A DNA stretch of 64,000 bases from an uncultured Chloroflexia bacterium (GTDB taxonomy: Bacteria; Chloroflexota; Limnocylindria; Limnocylindrales; CSP1-4). Within the stretch, counting starts at the first letter, position 1. Every line of letters begins with the position of its first letter. Location: assembly GCA_963712585.1 (NCBI GenBank), contig CAVQIH010000007.1, positions 8,227 to 72,226 on the forward strand, in the 5' to 3' direction. Positions 49,691-59,769 of the stretch are shown here, one piece after another. Under the pieces are notes generated by a model, which saw only the letters and a list, made by a program, of their open reading frames with translations, did not search any database and had not been told where the DNA came from. The position numbers were made by a program, and so were the translations under genes.

Positions 49691-52600
49691 ATGGCACAGC
49701 TCGCACCGGCAGACGACCTGAGCGACGAGCAGCGCGCCGTCGTAGGGTGGGGGGCCGGGCCGCTCATGGTCCTGGCGGGGGCTGGGACCGGCAAGACGAC
49801 GGTCATCGTCGAGCGCGTGCGCCGACTGCTGGCGACCGAGCCGGGGCTGACCCCCGAGCAGGTCCTGGTCCTCACCTACAACGTGCGGGCTGCGGGCGAG
49901 CTGGCCGAGCGCTTCGAACGGCGCCTTGGGATCACGGCCGCCAGCCGGCTCACCGTCACCAACTTCCACGCCTTCGGCTACCGCGTGCTTCGCGAACACG
50001 GCACCGAGATCGGCCTGCCGGCCCAGCTCGAGGTCCTCGATGACGTCGGCCAGCTGATGCTGCTGGCCGAGGTCGTGCCCAGCCTCAAGCTGGTCTACCA
50101 CGCCCCGGCGGTCCTCTCTGCGGATGCGCTGCGCGGGTTCGCGGCGGTGATCAGCCGGGCCAAGGACGAGCTCGTCGGGCCGGCGGCGTTCCACGAGTTT
50201 GCCGACAGGAAGCGCGCGGAGCTGGAGGCGCAGTTCGGGGCCGGCGCCTACCAGCGTGCGCTCGCCGACCTTCCGTCCGTGGGCGAGCGTGGCCCGGCCG
50301 CCGAGGTCCGGCGGGCCCTCCGCTCCGGTTCGGCGGAGGCCGTCGCCGATCGTGAGGCGCGCCGTCAGCTCGGCGAGGCCTGGCGGCCGGCCCCCTGGGG
50401 AGAGCTGGATCCGTTCCAGCAAGCGCGAGCCCGCCAGCTGGCCGGGACCCTCCTCCGTGACGCGGCTGCCCTGGAGGTCCTGCGCCTCGAGGAAGAGGCG
50501 CTCGTCTACGCCCGCTACCAGGACGCGCTTCGCCAGCGCGGTGCCGTCGACTTCGGCGAGCAGATCCGGCTGGCGGCCGAGCTCTTCCAAGGGCGGCCGA
50601 ACGTGCTCCTCCGCTATCAGCGTCGCTACCGTCACATCCTGGTCGACGAGTTCCAGGACGCCAACATCGCCCAGATCCTCCTCCTCGAGCTGCTCGCCCA
50701 GACGCCCGAGCGGCCGGCCAATGTCGTGGTCGTGGGCGACGACGACCAGTCGATCTACCGCTTCCGGGGTGCGAGCTATGCCGCCTTCGAGCAGTTCGCG
50801 TCGACCTTCGGCCCGGACGTGCCCCGGCTGCCACTCCTCCTGAACCGCCGCTCGACCGGTCGGATCCTGTCTGTCGCCGAACGCTTGATCTCGGCCAACT
50901 CGGCGCGGCTGAAGAGCGGCTCCGAGGGCCGGCTCCGTTCCACCCATGAGACCGGCCGGCCAGTCGAGCTCATCTACGCCCTGGACGAGGCCGACGAGGC
51001 CGAGGCGATCGTGGCCTGGGTCAAGGCGACGTTCGAGGCCCTGCCCGAGCGGATCGAGTTGCCGGACGGCGCGCGGCGTGCCCGGCGCTGGAGCGATGTC
51101 GCCGTCCTCTATCGCCAGCACCGGCACCGCGAGCTCCTGGTCGACCGCCTCCAACGGGCCGGCATCCCGTATGCCGTCCTGGGAGGGGCGGGCGTCTTCG
51201 CCCGCCAGGACGTGCGCGACGTCGAGGCCGCCCTGCGGGTCATGGTGGACCCATCCGACTCGGTAGCCTGTGCTCGCCTGCTGGCGGCGGGCCCCTGGCG
51301 GCTCGATGCGATCGAGCTTGCCCGGCTCACTCGCGCCGCCAGGGCGGACGGAATCCCCGTCTACGAGATGGCGCTCCGGGTCCTCCGCCAGGGAGAGATC
51401 GCCATCGAGCTTCCGGTCTCACCGCCGCATGCCGGCGACCCGCTCGAGGGAAGCGAGCCACCCGAGGTGGAGGACTCGCGGGCGGGCGACCCGGGTCCGA
51501 CCGATGGCGTGGCCCCGGTCGGCTCCGAGCCTCCTCGCCCGTTGGTCTCCCGCATCCGGCTGGAAGCGGGTTTGCGGACCAAGCTCGAGCGGCTGGCAGC
51601 CTGCTTCGACGATCTCGTCCCGAGGGCCTACCGCGAGCCGCCGCGGGTCATTCTCGACGAGTACCTGGCCCGCACGGGCCTGCTCGAGGACCTGCTCGCG
51701 GTCGGCACGCCGACGGCGACCCGGTCGGTCCTGGCCCTGGCCCGCCTGATGCGTTTCGTGGCCGAGTGGGGGAGCGACCGGCCGCGCGGGACGCTGGCGG
51801 ACTTCGTCGGCTTCCTCGATCGGTATCAGGCCATTGGCGGTGACCTGGCGGTGGAGGCGCCCGACCAGCTCGACGTCGACGGCGTCCAGCTGATGACGAT
51901 CTATCAGGCCAAGGGCCTCGAATACGAGGCCGTGGTGATTCCCCGCCTCACGAAAGGCCAGTTCCCGGTCGAGCGAGACCAGGGGCCGGTCATACCCGTC
52001 GAGCTCCTTCGCCAGAAGCCGCCCGAGGAGTTCGCCGTCGAGGAGGAACGCCGGCTGCTCTTCGTGGCGATGACGCGCGCCCGAACGCGGCTGCTGGTCA
52101 CCACGGTCGATGGTCCCGGTGGAACGGGTCGCCCCAGCCCCTTCGTGGGAGAGCTTGTCGCCCGGGACGCGTTCGGCGACCTCACTCCGCTCGACGACCT
52201 GCTGGTGGAGCGAAGGAGCCCGGAGCTCGACGACGGGCTCCCTGAGGCGTTGCCGGCCGGGTCCGAGGACGTCGCCGCAGGCGCGACGGTGCGCCCCCGC
52301 CGCCTGATGCCGCTGCCAGCCCCGTTCGAGCGACGGACCACGCTGCGACGGCGGGCGCTGGAGCTGATCGGGGCGCTCGAAGGCCTCGATCCGGCAGACC
52401 TCCAAGGGCGGGCGCAGCTGACCGACGAGCTCGTTGCCGTCGCGACCGATGCGGCCGGCGCTGCCGATGAAGCTCGCCGGGCCGGGTTGGACCCGCTCAC
52501 GCTGGGGGTCCTGGCGCGCCATGAGCCAGGTGGGGCTCGACTTCTGGAGCTCGCCCCACTACCGAGCTCGTTCAGCCACTCCCAGTTCCGGACGTACGAT

Positions 52601-53362
52601 GCCTGCCCCCTCCGTTATGCGTTCGACAAGGTCTACAGGATCCCGCCGCCCGAGGCCCATGGGTTCTTCGAGTTCGGCACGGCCGTCCACGAAGCGTTCG
52701 AGGCCTTCACTCGCGAGCGGCGAGAGCGGGCCGCGGCAGGGGAGGCGCCGCCCGATCTGGCCCGCCTCCAGGCGCACTTCGAGGCTGCCTTCGACCGGGG
52801 TGAGTTCGAGTCGCCCGCCGCCGTCGAGGAGTACCGGGCCCGGAGCGTCGCCGTCCTCGAACGGTTCTATGCCCGCGAGCTTGCCAGCCCCGCCGCCGCC
52901 GTCGGGTTCGAGCTCCCGTTCACCATGATCCTCGACCCCGGCGACGGGTCGTCGCCGGTCCGCTTCAGTGGCCAGATCGACCGCATCGACCGTCATCCCG
53001 ACGGCACCTTCGAGATCGTGGACTACAAGACCGGTCGCGCCCGAAGCCAGGCCGACGTCGACCACGACGATCAGTTGAGCGCCTATGCCCTGGCCTGTCG
53101 CGAAGGTGCGGTCCGCGATCCCGAGACCGGCACCCTCATCCCGACCCCCAGCCGGCTGACGCTCTATTTCACGGAGTCCGACCTGGCGCTCTCCACGACC
53201 CGCACCGATCAGCAGCTCGACGCTTTCCGTGAGCGAGTCCTGGCGACCGCAGCGCGAATCCGGGGCGGCGACCTGGCCGCGACACCGGGCTACATGACCT
53301 GCCGATTCTGTGACTTCCGGCGGCTCTGCCCCAGCCGCTACCGCGAGGAGCTGGAGCGGTAG
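49691..53362 (+). CDS. UvrD/PcrA-family SF1 helicase fused to a PD-(D/E)XK (RecB/AddB-like) nuclease, AdnB-like
   Basis: AGAGTGKT, LVDEFQD, VGDDDQSIYRFRGA, TIYQAKGLEY, EERRLLFVAMTRA; C-terminal CPLRY, GQIDRID, IVDYKTG, CRFCDFRRLC. Confidence 0.9.
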   Translation: MAQLAPADDLSDEQRAVVGWGAGPLMVLAGAGTGKTTVIVERVRRLLATEPGLTPEQVLVLTYNVRAAGELAERFERRLGITAASRLTVTNFHAFGYRVLREHGTEIGLPAQLEVLDDVGQLMLLAEVVPSLKLVYHAPAVLSADALRGFAAVISRAKDELVGPAAFHEFADRKRAELEAQFGAGAYQRALADLPSVGERGPAAEVRRALRSGSAEAVADREARRQLGEAWRPAPWGELDPFQQARARQLAGTLLRDAAALEVLRLEEEALVYARYQDALRQRGAVDFGEQIRLAAELFQGRPNVLLRYQRRYRHILVDEFQDANIAQILLLELLAQTPERPANVVVVGDDDQSIYRFRGASYAAFEQFASTFGPDVPRLPLLLNRRSTGRILSVAERLISANSARLKSGSEGRLRSTHETGRPVELIYALDEADEAEAIVAWVKATFEALPERIELPDGARRARRWSDVAVLYRQHRHRELLVDRLQRAGIPYAVLGGAGVFARQDVRDVEAALRVMVDPSDSVACARLLAAGPWRLDAIELARLTRAARADGIPVYEMALRVLRQGEIAIELPVSPPHAGDPLEGSEPPEVEDSRAGDPGPTDGVAPVGSEPPRPLVSRIRLEAGLRTKLERLAACFDDLVPRAYREPPRVILDEYLARTGLLEDLLAVGTPTATRSVLALARLMRFVAEWGSDRPRGTLADFVGFLDRYQAIGGDLAVEAPDQLDVDGVQLMTIYQAKGLEYEAVVIPRLTKGQFPVERDQGPVIPVELLRQKPPEEFAVEEERRLLFVAMTRARTRLLVTTVDGPGGTGRPSPFVGELVARDAFGDLTPLDDLLVERRSPELDDGLPEALPAGSEDVAAGATVRPRRLMPLPAPFERRTTLRRRALELIGALEGLDPADLQGRAQLTDELVAVATDAAGAADEARRAGLDPLTLGVLARHEPGGARLLELAPLPSSFSHSQFRTYDACPLRYAFDKVYRIPPPEAHGFFEFGTAVHEAFEAFTRERRERAAAGEAPPDLARLQAHFEAAFDRGEFESPAAVEEYRARSVAVLERFYARELASPAAAVGFELPFTMILDPGDGSSPVRFSGQIDRIDRHPDGTFEIVDYKTGRARSQADVDHDDQLSAYALACREGAVRDPETGTLIPTPSRLTLYFTESDLALSTTRTDQQLDAFRERVLATAARIRGGDLAATPGYMTCRFCDFRRLCPSRYREELER

Positions 53363-53452
53363 AGCCGGCCCGAAGACGGGCCCCCTTGCGGGCGCGCGGT
53401 ATGCTCTCGTCCCGGTCCCGAGGGCAGGGGCCGCTCACACCAGAGGCGACGC

Positions 53453-54373
53453 ATGGCACGCTCGATGTGGCGGGGGGCGATCCAGTTCGGGCTCGTGACG
53501 ATCCCGATCAAGCTCTACGTGGCCACGGAGTCGAAGGGCATCTCCTTCAACATGCTCCACGAGAGCTGCTTGAACCGAATCCAGATGAAGACCTACTGCC
53601 CGTTCCACGAGGAGACGATCTCCCGCGGGGACACCGTCAAGGGCTTCGAGTACGCCAGGGATCGCTACGTTGTGGTGACCGACGAGGACCTCGCCTCGGT
53701 GCCCCTCAAGACCGTCCGCGCCGTCGAGATCGAGAAGTTCGTGCGGGCCGACGAGAACCGGGCCACCCTGCAGTTCAGCAAGCAGGCCTACTACGTGGAG
53801 CCGGAGCAGATCGGGCGCAAGGCGTTCGCGCTGCTGCGGTCCGTGCTGGCGGATTCGGGGCTGACGGCGATCTGCAAGATCGTGCTGCGCGATCGCGAGC
53901 AGCTGGCGGCGCTCGATCCCGTCGGCGACACGCTCCTCCTGAACACGCTCTACTGGCCCGACGAGATCCGCTCGACCGCCGAGCTCAGCCTCTCCGACGG
54001 CGAGATCGAGTTCAAGCCGGCCGAGCGCGCCATGGCCGAGCAGCTGGTGGCGGCGATGACCGGTGAGTTCGATGCCGCCGAATACCACGACGACTACCGC
54101 GAGGCGTTGATGGCCGTCATCGAGGCCAAGGTCGCCGGCCAGGAGGTCGCGGCACCGGTGGCGCTCGAGCCGGAGGGCAACCTCGTCGATCTCATGGCCG
54201 CGCTCGAGGCAAGCGTCGCGGCCGCTCGCGGAGCCAAGGCCGCGGCTCCGGTCGGCGAGGTCACTCGCGCTCGCCCCAAGAAGGCCGCGGCGAAGCAGGT
54301 CACCGAGGTCGAGGCCGCCGAGGTTCAGGAGGCCGAGGAGGCAGCGCCCGTCCGCCGCCGCAAGTCCGCCTGA
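53453..54373 (+). CDS. ku: NHEJ DNA end-binding protein Ku
   Basis: MWRGAIQFGLVTIPIKLY, VKGFEY, YYVEP, LYWPDEIR, YHDDYRE, VDLMAALEASV, basic tail. Confidence 0.95.
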   Translation: MARSMWRGAIQFGLVTIPIKLYVATESKGISFNMLHESCLNRIQMKTYCPFHEETISRGDTVKGFEYARDRYVVVTDEDLASVPLKTVRAVEIEKFVRADENRATLQFSKQAYYVEPEQIGRKAFALLRSVLADSGLTAICKIVLRDREQLAALDPVGDTLLLNTLYWPDEIRSTAELSLSDGEIEFKPAERAMAEQLVAAMTGEFDAAEYHDDYREALMAVIEAKVAGQEVAAPVALEPEGNLVDLMAALEASVAAARGAKAAAPVGEVTRARPKKAAAKQVTEVEAAEVQEAEEAAPVRRRKSA

Positions 54374-54387
54374 CGGGAGACCGATCG

Positions 54388-55107
54388 ATGCCCGGGACGG
54401 GGACCGGGCCGCGCCCCCGAAGCCACCCCCCGGCCGGACAGCTGTCCTTGCCGCTCGACCGCGGTGGCCGCCTGCCGGCCCGGATCAGGCCGATGCGACC
54501 GACGCCCGGCGACGGGCCGTTCGACGATCCTGCCTACCTGTTCGAGCCGTGGTGGCCGGGGTCGCGGACGTTCGTGGTCATCGAGGCCGGACGGGTGCGC
54601 CTCGAGGCCGACGAGCTGGCCGATCCCGTGGCGGCGTTTCCCGAGCTCGGGGCGATCGCCAACCTGATCGTGCCGCCGATCGACGGGACCGTCCTCGGGG
54701 GCACGGTGCTCGTGCTCGACCGGGGCGGACGGCCGAGCCAATCCCTGCTCCGCCGTCGCCTCTCGGATCCATCGCAGCATTCGGGTCGCCCGGCCTTCGT
54801 CGCCGACGATCTCCTGTACGCCGGGGGGCGCTCGCTCCTTCGCCGGCCGCTGTCGGAGCGGCGCACGCGGCTCGACGAGCTCCTGCGCCCGACCGATTGG
54901 TGTCTGGCCAGCCGGGGCTACATCGGCGACGGAACGACCGTGGCGCAAGCCCTCATCGGGCTCGGCATCGGCGGGCTCTCGGCGCGGCGGCTGTCCGCCA
55001 TCTACCGGCCGGGGCCCGCTGGCGACGCCTGGTTCTGGATCCCGCTCCCGACCGCCGATCGCCCCTCCTCGCCGTTGTTGACCGTGATCCGCAGCCTCGG
55101 GCTGTGA
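54388..55107 (+). CDS. catalytically inactive ATP-dependent DNA ligase adenylation-domain paralog
   Basis: Colinear with the LigD ligase domain (IRPM, FEP, DLLY..GRSLLRRPL.ERR, Y.PG), but KxDG is replaced by WWPG and motifs III, IV and V are degenerate; no OB domain. Confidence 0.75.
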   Translation: MPGTGTGPRPRSHPPAGQLSLPLDRGGRLPARIRPMRPTPGDGPFDDPAYLFEPWWPGSRTFVVIEAGRVRLEADELADPVAAFPELGAIANLIVPPIDGTVLGGTVLVLDRGGRPSQSLLRRRLSDPSQHSGRPAFVADDLLYAGGRSLLRRPLSERRTRLDELLRPTDWCLASRGYIGDGTTVAQALIGLGIGGLSARRLSAIYRPGPAGDAWFWIPLPTADRPSSPLLTVIRSLGL

Positions 55108-55129
55108 GGCACTGACGGGCGCTGGGCCG

Positions 55130-57949
55130 ATGCCGCTCGAGGAATACCGGCGCAAGCGCGACTTCGCCAAGACGCCCGAACCTTCCGGCGAGGGGCCGCC
55201 GCTCTCGACAGACGACACTGCGGCACACCCGTCACCGGGGGCGACGCCCCAGCCGGTGCTCGTGGCGGCCCCGGCCGGCCCGAACCGCTTCGTCGTCCAA
55301 CGGCACCGGGCGACTCGGCTCCACTACGACCTGCGGCTCGAGATCGACGACGTCCTCGTGAGCTGGGCCGTTCCCAAGGGCCCGACGCTGGATCCCGATC
55401 AGCGCCGGATGGCCGTCCACGTCGAGGATCATCCCGTCGACTACTTCGATTTCGAGGGCCTGATCCCGCGAGGCGAATACGGTGCCGGCGACGTGATCGT
55501 CTGGGACTGGGGCCACTTCATGCCCGAGGGGACCGCCGATCCGGGTGCCGCCGTGCGAGCCGGCGAGCTCAAGTTCCGGCTCGAGGGTGAGAAGCTGCGG
55601 GGCCGGTTCACCATCGTGCGGACCTCCGGGCGGGGAGGCGATGCGTCGCACCAGGCCGGCTCGGGCGAGGCGTGGTTGCTCATCCACAAGCGCGACGAGG
55701 ACGCCATCGCCGGCTGGGACGCCGAGCACCATCCGCGCTCGGTGAAGTCGGGCCTCACCAACGACGAGGTCCGGGCTGGGGGAGCGCGCTCCACTGACGA
55801 TCCGCCACGCCCGGAAGCCGTCGACGCTGAGGCGGCCGGCGCGCCGACCCCGCCCGAGGCCGACCTTTCGGCCGCCATCGTGGCCCCCATGCCGGCCTTC
55901 ATCGCCCCGATGGGCGCCACGCTGGCAGCCCGTACCTTCGATTCGCCCGATTGGCTCTTCGAGCCGAAATGGGACGGCTATCGGGTCGAGGCTCTCGTCA
56001 GGGCCGGCTCGGTCCGGCTCCGAACACGGAACGGCAACGACGCCGAGACCTACTTCGGGCGCCTCCTCGACCCCCCGACTTGGATCGCCGCCGACGAGGC
56101 GATCGTAGACGGAGAGGTCGTGGCGCTCGATCCCGACGGCCGGCCGGACTTCGGCCTTCTCCAGGAGGCGATCTCGGGCCTGACGGGCCGCTCCGCCCCG
56201 GGAGCCTGGGGGAGGGGTGAGGGCGCGGGGCAGCACGACCGGCCCGCTGGGGCGATGCCGCGGCCCGCACCGCTCCTCTACGTGGCCTTCGACCTCCTGT
56301 ATGTCGACGGACGCTCGCTCCTGCGCGTGCCGCTCGAGGAGCGCAAGCGGGCCCTCCGCTCGGCCCTCCGCGAACACCCGCGGGTGCGCTTCGGAGCTCA
56401 CGTCGAGGCCGCCGGGGTGGCCTTCTTCGAGGCCGCCCGCGAGCGTGCCCTCGAAGGGGTCGTCGCCAAACGCCGCGGCAGCCTGTACGAGCCCGGTCGG
56501 CGCTCGGACGCGTGGCTGAAGCTCAAAGTGCGGCCTGAGCAGGAGTTCGCGGTGGTCGGCTATCTGCCCGGGGAGGGCAGCCACGCCGAGCTCGGGTCGA
56601 TCCTGCTTTCCGTCCATGACGGCGACGGCTTCGTCTATGCCGGACGGGTGGGCAGCGGTCTCGACGCGCGCCTGCGGGCCGAGCTCAAGCGTGCGCTCGA
56701 CGCAGAGCGGCTCGCGCAGCCGCCGCTGACGGCAGACCCCACCGCCCGGGATCCCGGGCTGCGGGCGGCCATTTGGTCAGCGCCTCGCCTCGTCGCCCGG
56801 GTCCGCTTCGCCGGCTGGTCGCGGGAGGGGCTGGTCCGCCAGCCCTCGTTTGCGGGGCTCGACCCGGGCCGCAACCCGGCGGAGGTGACGCGAGAGATGC
56901 CCTTGGAGCGAGCCCCCGAGGCGACCCCGGAACCTCGAACCGTCGGATCGGTCGATCCAACCGGTCCGTCTGCCGGTTCCGTTCGCGGCGCGAGTGAGGC
57001 CGAGCTCGAGGCGCTGGCCACCGTGCGGCCGTCGGGCGGGCCATGGCGGATCGAGAACCGGGAGGTGAAGCTGACCAACCTCGACAAGGCCATCTTCCCG
57101 GCGGCTCCGGATCACCCCGCGGGTCCCCGCCCGGCGGTGACCAAGCGAGACCTGATCCGCTACTACGCCGAGATCGGGCCCGTTCTTCTGCCACACCTCG
57201 CGGGTCGAGCGCTCAATCTGCAGCGCTTCCCGGACGGGGCGGGAGGTCCCGGGTTCTGGCAGAAGGCGCTGCGGCCGACCGATCCCGACTGGCTCCACCG
57301 CTGGCGGGAGCCTGATCCGCGGGGGCGCGATCCGAACGTTCACCTCGTGGCCGACTCCCTCGCCGCGCTGGCCTGGCTCGGGAACCAGGCCGCCATCGAG
57401 CTCCACCCGTGGACGGCCCGGATCGAGGCACCCGATCGTCCGACGTTCGCTCTCATCGACATCGACCCGGGTACCTCGACCATCTGGGAGGAGGTGCTGG
57501 TGCTGGCGCGGCTCTACCGGACTGCGCTCGGCCACCTGGCGGTGAGTGGCTTCCCCAAGGTCACCGGAAAGCGCGGGATCCAGGTCTTCGTCCCTGTCGA
57601 GCCCGCGTACTCGTTCGACGAGACCCGGGGCTGGGTGGAGGCGCTTTCTCGTGCGGTGGGGGCGATGGTGCCCGAACTCGTGAGCTGGGAGTGGAGCGTC
57701 GCCGAGCGGGGTGGCCGCGCCCGACTCGACTACACCCAGAACACGCCCATCAAGACCCTCGTGTCCGTGTATTCGCCGCGGCCCGCCCCGGGAGCCCCTG
57801 TCTCTGCGCCGATCACCTGGGACGAGCTCGACGACCCGGTCCTGCGGCCTGACGGCTGGACGATCACGAGCGTCATGGAGCGGGTCCGCGAGCGCGGCGA
57901 CCTGTTCGCCGGAGCGGCCACGCTGCGCCAGCGGCTACCGAAGCTGTAG
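55130..57949 (+). CDS. ligD: NHEJ DNA ligase D (phosphoesterase-ligase-polymerase)
   Basis: PE: EEYRRKRDF, HRATRLHYDLRLE, SWAVPKGP; LIG: EPKWDG, DGEVV, FDLL, EGVVAK, WLKLK; POL: LTNLDK, RFPDG, IELHPW, DIDP, LDYTQN. Confidence 0.95.
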   Translation: MPLEEYRRKRDFAKTPEPSGEGPPLSTDDTAAHPSPGATPQPVLVAAPAGPNRFVVQRHRATRLHYDLRLEIDDVLVSWAVPKGPTLDPDQRRMAVHVEDHPVDYFDFEGLIPRGEYGAGDVIVWDWGHFMPEGTADPGAAVRAGELKFRLEGEKLRGRFTIVRTSGRGGDASHQAGSGEAWLLIHKRDEDAIAGWDAEHHPRSVKSGLTNDEVRAGGARSTDDPPRPEAVDAEAAGAPTPPEADLSAAIVAPMPAFIAPMGATLAARTFDSPDWLFEPKWDGYRVEALVRAGSVRLRTRNGNDAETYFGRLLDPPTWIAADEAIVDGEVVALDPDGRPDFGLLQEAISGLTGRSAPGAWGRGEGAGQHDRPAGAMPRPAPLLYVAFDLLYVDGRSLLRVPLEERKRALRSALREHPRVRFGAHVEAAGVAFFEAARERALEGVVAKRRGSLYEPGRRSDAWLKLKVRPEQEFAVVGYLPGEGSHAELGSILLSVHDGDGFVYAGRVGSGLDARLRAELKRALDAERLAQPPLTADPTARDPGLRAAIWSAPRLVARVRFAGWSREGLVRQPSFAGLDPGRNPAEVTREMPLERAPEATPEPRTVGSVDPTGPSAGSVRGASEAELEALATVRPSGGPWRIENREVKLTNLDKAIFPAAPDHPAGPRPAVTKRDLIRYYAEIGPVLLPHLAGRALNLQRFPDGAGGPGFWQKALRPTDPDWLHRWREPDPRGRDPNVHLVADSLAALAWLGNQAAIELHPWTARIEAPDRPTFALIDIDPGTSTIWEEVLVLARLYRTALGHLAVSGFPKVTGKRGIQVFVPVEPAYSFDETRGWVEALSRAVGAMVPELVSWEWSVAERGGRARLDYTQNTPIKTLVSVYSPRPAPGAPVSAPITWDELDDPVLRPDGWTITSVMERVRERGDLFAGAATLRQRLPKL

Positions 57950-57968
57950 CAGCGACGGATCCGCCGGC

Positions 57969-58232
57969 GTGAAGGCGGGCGACACGGTGCACGTCACGCT
58001 CCGCGTCGATCGGGCACCGAAGGTGGTCGCAGTGCCGGCTGAGCTGGAGCGGGCGCTAGCCGCGAGCCCCGAGGCAGGCGTTCGGTGGGTGCGCATGGCC
58101 CAGTCGCATCGCAATGAGTATGCGGAGTTCGTCGGCGAGGCGAAGCGACCCGAGACGCGTGAACGGCGGGCGGCCCAGACCGTCGAGCGACTCCTGGAGA
58201 TCTCACCAACTGCCGGCCGGGGAGCTGGCTAG
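57969..58232 (+). pseudogene. C-terminal part of a DUF1905/YdeI-OmpD-associated protein (N-terminus missing)
   Basis: GVKAGDTVHVTL...VPAEL..AL...SHRNEY...EAKRPETRERR typical of OmdA-domain proteins; begins mid-domain. Confidence 0.6.
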
Positions 58233-59518
58233 CCGACCTCGTCGCGCGCGCCGCCGACGACCCGCAGCTCGGCCTCGGCCTCGGCGACCCGGGCGATTAC
58301 GCCATCGCGCAAACGGTCGAGACCTGCCTGGACGTCCCGGGCGCCGTTGCTCATCGAGGTCAGGGTCGCCTTCATTCCCCGGACCGTCTCGAGCTGCTCG
58401 CGGATGCCGGTCAAGGCCTCGCGGATCGCGGCGGCATCGACATCGACGTCGCGCTCGCGCAGGGACGCCAGCGCGTGGAGGCGGGCCAGGCGGACCGCGC
58501 CCTCGAGGGCGGCGCGGTCCGGGGCGGTCGGATCGAGGACGCAGTAGACATCGCCGGCGCGAACATCGAACGGCTCGATCCCCCGCGGGGCGTGCTCCGG
58601 GGTGAAGATCACGAGCCCGACAGCAGCCGAGCGGTTCTCCTTCGCCTGGCGGAGCTCGTCGCGCATCTCCCTTCCCGACACCGGGCGATCCTTGCACTCG
58701 ACGACGACGCGGAGGTCCGCGCCCGACGTCAGCGAAGGATCGAGGCTGAGCACGAAATCCCCCTTCTTGGATCGGACCACGGCCCCCGCCTCGGTGCCCG
58801 TCCGGTCGCACAGATCGCCGGAGCCGCGGGCGATCTCGCCGAGGAGCTCGTCGACGAGGTCCTCGAAGTCGCCTCCCTTGGCGGTCCCCCTGGCGCGCTC
58901 CCGCTCGCGTACCCCGGTCGCCAACTCGAGCGCGGACAGCCGCTCACCGAGCCTGGCGAAGCCGTCGGCGACCTCAGAGCGGAACTGGTGAAGCGGCGAG
59001 CCCAGGCGAGTCGGGTCGAGGAGCTGCGCCAGGCGCGACGCGTCCCCATCGAAGTACTGGCCGAGCAGGAGCTGCATCCGGCCGATCGCGCTGTCGCGCT
59101 TGGCTGGGTCGAACAGCTCGCCGACAAATGTCCGGAGGGCCCCCCGATCCCCGAGGAAGCGCTCCAGCGTGCGAGGCAAGCGGCCGTCGCCATCGCCGAA
59201 GTTGGCGCGGAGGACCTGGTCGAGGGCCGTTGCGGCCCGCTCGTTGGCGGCCTCCGTCTGACGAAGGAGGCCCTCGAACTCGCGGCGTACGACGTCGACG
59301 TTGACCGAAACGCCGGCGTCCTGCAGGGCGGTCAGGCCGATCTTGAGGGCGCGCTCGACCACTCCGAGCCGGTCGTCGGCCTCGCGCTGCCCGACGTAGG
59401 CCGCCAGGGCGGCGTCGCAGAGCACGAGATGCTCGATAACGATGCGGTCGGCTTCGATCCGGATGTCGGGCGCAGACGTGATCGGCGATGGGAGGGGGAC
59501 CAGGCGGGCGGTCGTCAT
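58229..59518 (-). CDS. coiled-coil protein with RmuC/DUF2130-like PD-(D/E)XK nuclease domain
   Basis: Helical N-terminus, KGGDFE, KKGDFV, VVVECKD, AKENRSA, C-terminal coiled coil. Confidence 0.6.
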   Translation of the reverse strand: MTTARLVPLPSPITSAPDIRIEADRIVIEHLVLCDAALAAYVGQREADDRLGVVERALKIGLTALQDAGVSVNVDVVRREFEGLLRQTEAANERAATALDQVLRANFGDGDGRLPRTLERFLGDRGALRTFVGELFDPAKRDSAIGRMQLLLGQYFDGDASRLAQLLDPTRLGSPLHQFRSEVADGFARLGERLSALELATGVRERERARGTAKGGDFEDLVDELLGEIARGSGDLCDRTGTEAGAVVRSKKGDFVLSLDPSLTSGADLRVVVECKDRPVSGREMRDELRQAKENRSAAVGLVIFTPEHAPRGIEPFDVRAGDVYCVLDPTAPDRAALEGAVRLARLHALASLRERDVDVDAAAIREALTGIREQLETVRGMKATLTSMSNGARDVQAGLDRLRDGVIARVAEAEAELRVVGGARDEVG

Positions 59519-59769
59519 GGCGCCCACTCTCGGGGCGACTCGTGCCACCTAGCCTGGCACGAGTCGCCCGCCGGATGATCGCCGTGCCGGGCGATGGTGA
59601 AGCCGGGCTGCCGCCGCGGCAGGTCCCGTTCTCCGGGCGCCGGGGTGGGCCCAGTACCGCTGGCCGGTTGACGGAATCCGCGGCGTCCCCATTCTTGGGC
59701 CACAGCGGGTGGGTTGGCTGGTATCCGGCGGCGGCCGCCCGGCCGGGACGACGCCACAATGAGGGGCCG

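Follow-up and report, generated by a model that had tools for sequence, protein, structure and literature searches.

Introduction

Non-homologous end joining (NHEJ) in bacteria is described, in the relevant passages of PMC12658125 and PMC7969030, as a two-protein system consisting of Ku and LigD. Here we consider a locus in which an additional gene, called X below, is placed between ku and ligD, in a stretch of 64,000 nucleotides (further referred to as the window) from an uncultured Chloroflexia bacterium (GTDB lineage Bacteria; Chloroflexota; Limnocylindria; Limnocylindrales; CSP1-4; NCBI GenBank assembly GCA_963712585.1, contig CAVQIH010000007.1, positions 8,227 to 72,226 of the forward strand); positions are counted from the first letter of the window. 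We propose, with a probability of roughly 0.55, that the product of X serves Ku end joining as a third component without enzymatic activity, namely as an adaptor that docks on the sliding clamp and was derived from a ligase encoded next to Ku.

The closest described relative of X is the ligase (LIG) domain of Mycobacterium tuberculosis LigD (TIGR02779/PRK09632). Ku of this organism, as well as the Ku core domain, binds the LigD ligase domain directly, as reported by Sowa et al. (2022, PMC9638933). Like X, the LIG domain has the adenylation fold, which is homologous in the two proteins, and is encoded near Ku; shared stretches include PM..T, FD.P.Y/W.FEP.W.G.R and FVA.DLL. Unlike the LIG domain, X is without the adenylation lysine, is changed in motifs III, IIIa, IV and V, has no OB domain, is not fused to the phosphoesterase (PE) and polymerase (POL) domains, carries N- and C-terminal peptides of its own and is lysine-free in most copies.

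A precedent for a catalytically dead enzyme serving as an adaptor is ImuB, an inactive Y-family polymerase. As a part of the ImuA'-ImuB-DnaE2 mutasome it resembles X in concept, being the carrier of a clamp motif of the QLPL type; in mycobacteria this motif is QLPLWG, with a QLPL core, and is essential for function (PMC10421592). ImuB, a Y-family polymerase by its fold and a participant in translesion synthesis, is unrelated to X in both respects and differs from it also in the internal rather than N-terminal position of the motif, and clamp binding by X is a modelled one. The N-terminal position is found in Hda and HdaA, which, like X, bear a hexapeptide of the clamp-binding type within a few residues of the N-terminus. 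That of Escherichia coli Hda is QLSLPL, a tight-binding motif identical to the one of the window X; in Caulobacter HdaA it is QFKLPL at residues 4-9, and the motif of Hda/HdaA is required for clamp binding (passages of PMC12309361 and PMC3836487). Hda reads the presence of the clamp on DNA as a signal; it belongs to the AAA+ proteins, has DnaA as its target and is neither homologous to X nor linked to Ku.

Eukaryotes possess several non-catalytic NHEJ factors, such as XRCC4, XLF, PAXX and CYREN/MRI. Works cited in the part of PMC12658125 that deals with them report Ku binding by XLF, APLF and PAXX. Like X in the role proposed here, the eukaryotic factors are non-enzymatic, dock on Ku by short peptides and help or restrain joining, while having no homology to it.

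Catalytic features of X

The X gene starts with ATG and occupies positions 54388..55107 of the plus strand, stop codon included, encoding 239 amino acids; the stop codon of ku is 14 bp before it and the start of ligD 22 bp after it. These coordinates, length and gaps, given in the preliminary description of this stretch, were reproduced by the list of open reading frames (ORFs) and the translation. In a BLASTP comparison with the neighbouring LigD, residues 29-216 of X align with LigD residues 254-463 (32% identity, E 4e-22), and each of the five catalytic motifs named in the preliminary description is replaced in the way that was claimed there: FEPKWDG by FEPWWPG (motif I), DGEVV by GGTVL (III), AFDLL by ADDLL (IIIa), EGVVAK by GGLSAR (IV), and WLKLK by WFWIP (V). 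The motif I remnant FEPWWPG corresponds to residues 52-58 (54541..54561, plus strand), with Trp55 at the position of the adenylated lysine. In the family, motif III has the form GGT or DGT, with its Glu replaced, motif IV is xxLSAR and motif V is WLRxP, the lysines of the latter two being Arg or Pro. In LigD AFDLL the Phe stacks on adenine; the X family has a variable residue (A, S, T, Q, D, H, V) at the corresponding position of the alignment.

Assignment of X to the LigD-type ligases is based on several comparisons. Its score against PF01068 is 33.1 bits at a gathering cut-off of 26.2 (Pfam), NCBIfam models of the LigD type match it with E-values of 7.5e-21 and 4e-18, and the best matches of the family profile among PDB sequences are entries of the M. 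tuberculosis LigD ligase domain (6NHX, 6NHZ and 1VS0, E ~4e-25). The AlphaFold2 model of X built from a 129-row alignment has a pLDDT of 90.5 and a pTM of 0.84; most of the domain is predicted at 94-98, the first 30 residues, devoid of secondary structure, at 67-77, and the last 20 residues are also less confident. The top Foldseek matches to this model are ATP-dependent ligases (TM ~0.7 on the query). As for the OB domain, which ligases need for adenylation and nick clamping, its absence from X, noted in the preliminary description, is borne out by Pfam, where PF04679 does not match X whereas it matches the neighbouring LigD, and by a gap of ~95 residues in X at the place where intact relatives carry this domain (MAFFT alignment). 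One more peculiarity is the scarcity of lysine: the window X has 0 Lys and 29 Arg among 239 residues, while Ku has 16 Lys and LigD 21, and lysine is completely missing from 57/80 copies of X from the locus set described below and from 83/119 database homologues.

Since the adenylation lysine, the other catalytic motifs and the OB domain are lost, X is predicted to be unable either to form ligase-AMP on the canonical lysine or to seal DNA. Judging from its sequence, X is a relative of LigD-type ligases and not a ligase, as it lacks their defining catalytic features. In JGI most X homologues are named 'bifunctional non-homologous end joining protein LigD' and a few 'ATP-dependent DNA ligase' (~230 aa); these names are wrong for X because the lysine, the polymerase domain and the phosphoesterase domain are all missing. 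The idea that X retains some chemical or ligand-related job in the old active site, for instance as a nucleotide sensor or by means of a non-lysine nucleophile, would agree with the high-confidence preservation of the fold and with Arg60 (the Arg of KxDGxR) and Asp141, each at least 90% conserved. We regard it as very improbable in view of the Trp in place of Lys in 81/81 copies, the freedom of most copies from lysine, the disappearance of the motif III Glu, the variability of the motif IIIa aromatic position, the Arg or Pro substituting for the lysines of motifs IV and V, and the deletion of the OB domain.

Conservation and selection

A word-indexed database search with X retrieved 420 proteins at E <= 1e-3; the 120 homologues listed range from 198 to 276 aa in length and share 45-61% identity with it, and the few listed with an organism name belong to Candidatus Limnocylindria or Limnocylindrales. 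A search of cluster representatives gave 13 close relatives at E <= 1e-30, below which there were ordinary ligases, mostly of 200-350 aa and some much longer. Scanning one genome per species with a pattern gave 302 matching stretches, 282 of which encode a relative; the best 80 of these 282, nearly all from Chloroflexota metagenome-assembled genomes (Limnocylindria), make up the locus set used here. The set of sequence copies, also n = 80, comprises 79 of these loci and the window, with L080, missed by the pattern, left out.

It was expected from the preliminary description that the substitution of Trp for Lys would be conserved. FEPWWPG is present in the 79 loci and in the window, and the eightieth locus likewise has Trp for Lys, which makes 81/81 copies. 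In alignments of 33 and 129 sequences, Glu53, Pro54, Trp56 and Gly58 are invariant, while Trp55 and Pro57 are conserved to at least 90%; in one of the alignments the lone departure from EPWWPG is a database homologue with Arg (EPRWPG). The proposed dN/dS below 1 is also in agreement with the data: pN was lower than pS in 3160/3160 pairs of the 80 copies (Nei-Gojobori), and among the 25 listed pairs with the lowest dS (0.13-0.58) dN/dS was 0.08-0.36 in 24 and 0.90 in one. Between the peptide region and the stop codon, the reading frame is uninterrupted in 80/80 copies. X is under purifying selection and is not a decaying pseudogene.

High-GC DNA yields many long spurious ORFs, several of which overlap X, and this is what could be said in favour of X being a wrongly called ORF or an ordinary decaying duplicate of a ligase domain. 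Such an explanation was refuted by the homologues, the constant synteny with ku, the open frames and the prevalence of pS over pN, and, taking into account also the invariant columns, the 45-61% identity among the 120 listed homologues and the confidently predicted fold, its probability is practically negligible. Neither is there any sign of a defence or phage origin, X being unmatched in both PADLOC and PHROGs (Ku, too, was unmatched in PADLOC).

As to the distribution within the class, a profile search of 301 genomes, 12 of them flagged as unpublished, showed that close matches (E below ~1e-80) fill one family, f4, and some genera of another, f1. The class-wide tally of 276/301 genomes was not used as a count of X, because the limit of 1e-30 also catches LigD (~150 bits, frames of ~820 aa).

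The same genome contains a second short ligase-like ORF, not located beside ku (C12:234257-234919, seen also as L086:1417-2082 and in L128). Its product of 221 aa matches PF01068 with 28.5 bits, is 26% identical to X and has lost the motif I lysine (EPLWEGER). Other genomes of the class encode full-length relatives of ~235 aa, and in 10/12 loci where the pattern found motif I the lysine position is taken by L, M, S, A or G. These proteins may form a second, independent family of dead ligases.

The ku-X gene pair

The ku gene (53453..54373, plus strand) encodes a protein of 306 aa recognized by PF02735 (E 3.2e-41) and TIGR02772 (E 7.5e-80) and is the sole Ku match across the source genome. LigD (55130..57949, plus strand; 939 aa) retains an intact EPKWDG and matches PF13298, PF01068, PF04679 and PF21686, its domain order being phosphoesterase, ligase with OB, and primase-polymerase. 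Both the Ku and the LigD of the window are ordinary according to Pfam and NCBIfam.

Synteny of the type ku-X-ligD, suggested in the preliminary description, was found only in part. A ku gene lies directly upstream of X on the same strand in 77/80 loci, and in the three loci without it X is less than 800 nt from the contig end, that is, the locus is cut. LigD adjoins the pair in only 29/80 loci, following X directly in 26 and immediately preceding ku in 3. The other loci have no ligD within ~5 kb, and the genes that come next there vary between loci and are often on the opposite strand. Because ligD adjoins in these 29 loci only, the conserved unit is ku-X and not ku-X-ligD. The distance from the ku stop codon to the N-terminal peptide of X discussed below has a median of 38 nt. 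Taken together, Trp in place of Lys, purifying selection and adjacency to ku support the interpretation of X as a pseudoenzyme that was put forward at the outset.

The C-termini of the Ku proteins from the window (~54353-54370) and the 77 loci nearly all consist of a run of R/K followed by T/S/V/I and then A. The most frequent forms are RRRKTA and RRKSA, placed after a variable arm rich in Ala, Lys and Glu; L006 and L038 differ.

The N-terminal peptide and the sliding clamp

Residues 18-23 of X (54439..54456, plus strand) read QLSLPL, in accordance with the preliminary description. This hexapeptide belongs to an exposed N-terminal stretch of low model confidence and fits QL[SP]LPL, a hexapeptide class that binds the clamp according to a passage of PMC3836487; its assignment to the beta-clamp-binding type comes from the sequence, from conservation in the family and from a model with DnaN. 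Within the 30 residues before the fold, the pattern L.L.[FILVM] occurs in 67/80 copies, whereas 1000 shuffled versions of these tails gave 4.0 on average and 11 at most; preceded by Q, it occurs in 44/80 copies (shuffle mean 0.25), and 7 further copies have EQLPLP[ATG]. The conservation of the motif that had been anticipated is thereby supported. Typical forms are EQLPLPV, QLPLSI, QLSLPL and QLRLVL, with EPLPLEF in the subclade in which ligD is downstream. The peptide begins 3-17 residues past the nearest in-frame start, with 1 exception among the 70 loci tallied (73 were evaluated), and is followed, after a linker of variable length, by FEPWWPG at a distance of ~35 residues.

Another protein of the same genome, DinB, carries the clamp motif EQLGLF. 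The dinB gene (L117, C8:86800-90246, minus strand) consists of two overlapping frames, ORFs 1093-2262 and 723-1676, EQLGLF being in the downstream piece; this split may be either a frameshift or an assembly error.

Modelling of the complex with DnaN, proposed in the preliminary description, was done with the genome's own DnaN (alignment of 28 Chloroflexota sequences, one locus of a genome flagged as unpublished having been excluded) and residues 1-50 of X. The score was 0.65, against 0.33 for the best of three controls, and passed a mark that is reached by 58/80 solved complexes and 2/110 mismatched pairs; three runs shared at least 61% of contacts. In the model, residues 14-25 of X contact DnaN residues 173, 175-178, 245-250, 281-283, 325, 349, 351, 365 and 367-371, which we take, by the E. 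coli numbering, to be the pocket between domains II and III together with the C-terminal strand. The model supports binding of the X peptide to DnaN, as far as a predicted complex can do so.

The clamp is not the sole conceivable partner of the peptide. X could be a scaffold or regulator of Ku and LigD with no link to the clamp, the peptides docking on Ku, which is a symmetric dimer, or on LigD, and the likeness to clamp motifs being convergent; it might then act as a decoy at the site of Ku that receives the ligase domain, tuning or blocking LigD. The adjacency of ku and X in 77/80 loci and the above-mentioned binding of the LigD ligase domain by the M. tuberculosis Ku core suit this possibility. 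At the same time, QLSLPL is identical to a hexapeptide proven to bind the clamp tightly, and the model puts it in the canonical pocket of DnaN with a score well above that of the controls. We know of no Ku-binding peptide in bacteria with which the peptides of X could be compared in this respect. The role of a scaffold independent of the clamp is, in our opinion, possible and on balance unlikely, even when the peptides described in the next two sections are considered.

The C-terminal tails of X and LigD

The end of the X protein is conserved as well as its N-terminal peptide, with the family consensus RPxLAxIQRLPL followed by 0-9 residues; in the window the tail is PLLTVIRSLGL (residues 229-239; 55072..55104, plus strand). 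LigD of the window ends with RQRLPKL (57926..57946, plus strand), and the ending Q.LP.L is common to 29/29 LigD copies, i.e., 28 loci in the range L001-L072 and the window. LigD proteins of a sister family, f3, considered below end with QKLP[KR] plus three residues, and the ending was not seen in the three LigDs found on proteobacterial plasmids (3 of 623 records). The resemblance of the X tail [QRL]RLPL to that of LigD suggests, at the level of sequence, a docking peptide shared by the two proteins. A single docking site for both tails, if there is one, would speak for the scaffold role without a clamp.

Origin of X

In f3, a sister family within Limnocylindria (L122-L127), the gene directly after ku encodes an intact-looking stand-alone ligase in 6/6 loci, all of them from genomes without the unpublished flag. 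It has FELKWDG, LDGEIVV, FVAFDLL, LEGIVAKR and WLKC at the places of the catalytic motifs, as well as an OB-like domain, and its best NCBIfam matches are models of the LigD type; the one ORF with a complete N-terminus is 344 aa long up to the locus end, which cuts it. About 12 residues from the start, in the same place as the X peptide, there is the peptide HPTLIDV, and the tail, RPRLVVLNSLPF plus 2-4 residues, aligns with the X tail across the ~95-residue gap (MAFFT). A full PE-LIG-POL ligD is located ~2 kb away on the opposite strand of these loci. Matches of f3 genomes to the X profile reach only ~1e-40, and those listed are mostly frames of ~820 aa, i.e., LigD itself. Compared with X, the f3 ligase keeps KWDG, motifs III-V and the ~95-residue OB domain, and its N-terminal peptide is less clamp-like.

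We consider it most likely that X descends from an active stand-alone ligase encoded next to Ku and carrying both terminal peptides, rather than from LigD; this ancestry is favoured because the position of the genes is the same and the terminal peptides are shared. The descent would have consisted in giving up catalysis and the OB domain while keeping the fold and two docking peptides, with the N-terminal peptide moving nearer to the clamp consensus than HPTLIDV. The intact f3 ligase and X would then represent a natural 'before and after' pair, in which the fold and the two docking peptides survive the loss of catalysis.

In a quick IQ-TREE analysis of 71 adenylation domains, with 49/80 X copies and 17/30 LigD rows omitted at random, X forms one clade on a long stem within the LigD-type group (SH-aLRT 100). 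In a tree without the long-branched second dead ligase, the grouping of X with the f3 ligase received a support of 69, which is not significant, and the grouping of X with LigD was not rejected (p-AU 0.66).

Proposed role of X

Based on the above, the adaptor role of X may be outlined as follows. The ku-X gene pair would make X together with Ku. The N-terminal hexapeptide would dock into the protein-binding pocket of DnaN, and the folded pseudo-ligase body would hold Ku, the latter contact being supposed because the Ku core of M. tuberculosis binds the LigD ligase domain and X travels with ku. In this way X could couple Ku-bound DNA ends to DNA-loaded clamps and either help or restrain LigD.

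Concerning the first step, an RNA-library contig of 192 nt spans the ku stop and the X start (54334-54525, 2 differences), and a second RNA library contains a 201-nt contig inside X (54819-55019); the DNA and RNA contigs together give partial coverage of 53000-58200, the parts without coverage being uninformative. We see here a weak hint of the expression of X and the co-transcription of ku and X. A scan of 53000-58600 for promoters and terminators found none, fewer than in shuffled sequences, and is uninformative either way.

Several points weigh against the adaptor role as outlined, or against parts of it. The RNA contigs are a hint only, because such libraries may contain DNA and contigs cannot prove a transcript. 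The Ku contact is deduced from gene adjacency and from the behaviour of M. tuberculosis proteins. With regard to the clamp, passing the complex model means likeness to known complexes, since many clamp-peptide complexes have been solved and memory is possible, and the partner's own fold is uncertain in that model (pLDDT 44-49). The subclade with ligD downstream usually has P, M, R, A or S instead of Q at the first position of the peptide; 13/80 copies miss the strict pattern, and about four (L001, L029, L057, L068) have nothing similar. The peptide may serve another partner, because the intact f3 ligase has in the same place HPTLIDV, a sequence with little resemblance to the clamp consensus; a scaffold role without the clamp would profit from this. 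It would equally profit from our literature searches, which revealed no link of bacterial NHEJ to the sliding clamp, DnaN, in a body of literature that left subscription journals largely uncovered. At the other end of the protein, the tail of the window X deviates from the consensus (IRSLGL, with SLGL for RLPL). The pI of X is not conserved, with a median of 5.8 in the family and 10.5 for the window copy; a basic surface kept throughout the family, which could hint at DNA binding, is therefore missing. Finally, the tree is compatible with both a ku-adjacent ligase and LigD as the source of X.

A further version of the adaptor role is clamp-gated end joining. Here X, present one-for-one with Ku, would grip both pockets of DNA-loaded DnaN by its terminal peptides, and its body would replace the LigD ligase domain on Ku; clamps left behind by replication would signal to Ku that the broken DNA is freshly replicated, so that a sister copy is at hand and joining is to be vetoed, whereas on resting DNA LigD would be admitted. 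We consider this version doubtful and rather improbable.

Other features of the locus

Upstream of ku, with a gap of 90 bp, there is a gene (49691-53362, plus strand) for a 1223-aa protein in which a UvrD-type helicase is fused to a PD-(D/E)XK nuclease and a cysteine cluster is present at the C-terminus. This is an enzyme of the break-resection type beside end-joining genes, and because of its presence the neighbourhood of ku appears to be concerned with broken DNA ends. On the other side, a small ORF with an OmdA/YdeI domain (57711-58232) overlaps the end of ligD, and an ORF of 439 aa (58229-59548, minus strand), with no match in Pfam, is convergent with the ligD operon.

Significance

Literature searches, in which subscription journals were largely uncovered, brought up no paper that describes a dead ligase in bacterial NHEJ or deals with NHEJ in Limnocylindria, and passages of PMC10140301 and PMC8656161 mention neither a dead ligase nor a clamp link for the bacterial pathway. 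What would be new is a Ku-LigD system with a third, non-enzymatic part derived from a ligase, similar in concept to ImuB or Hda. X is a protein kept beside ku, as a third one, in a class of soil and freshwater bacteria, and is non-enzymatic as judged by its sequence; it is probably the third, non-enzymatic part of bacterial end joining. If X binds the clamp, it would be the first tie of bacterial NHEJ to the replication clamp and, after ImuB, a second example of an inactive DNA enzyme turned into a clamp adaptor. Clamp-gating, if true, would be the bacterial equivalent of the way in which Ku-binding peptides subject NHEJ to the cell cycle in eukaryotes, and would have arisen by inactivation of a Ku-adjacent ligase whose docking peptides were kept.

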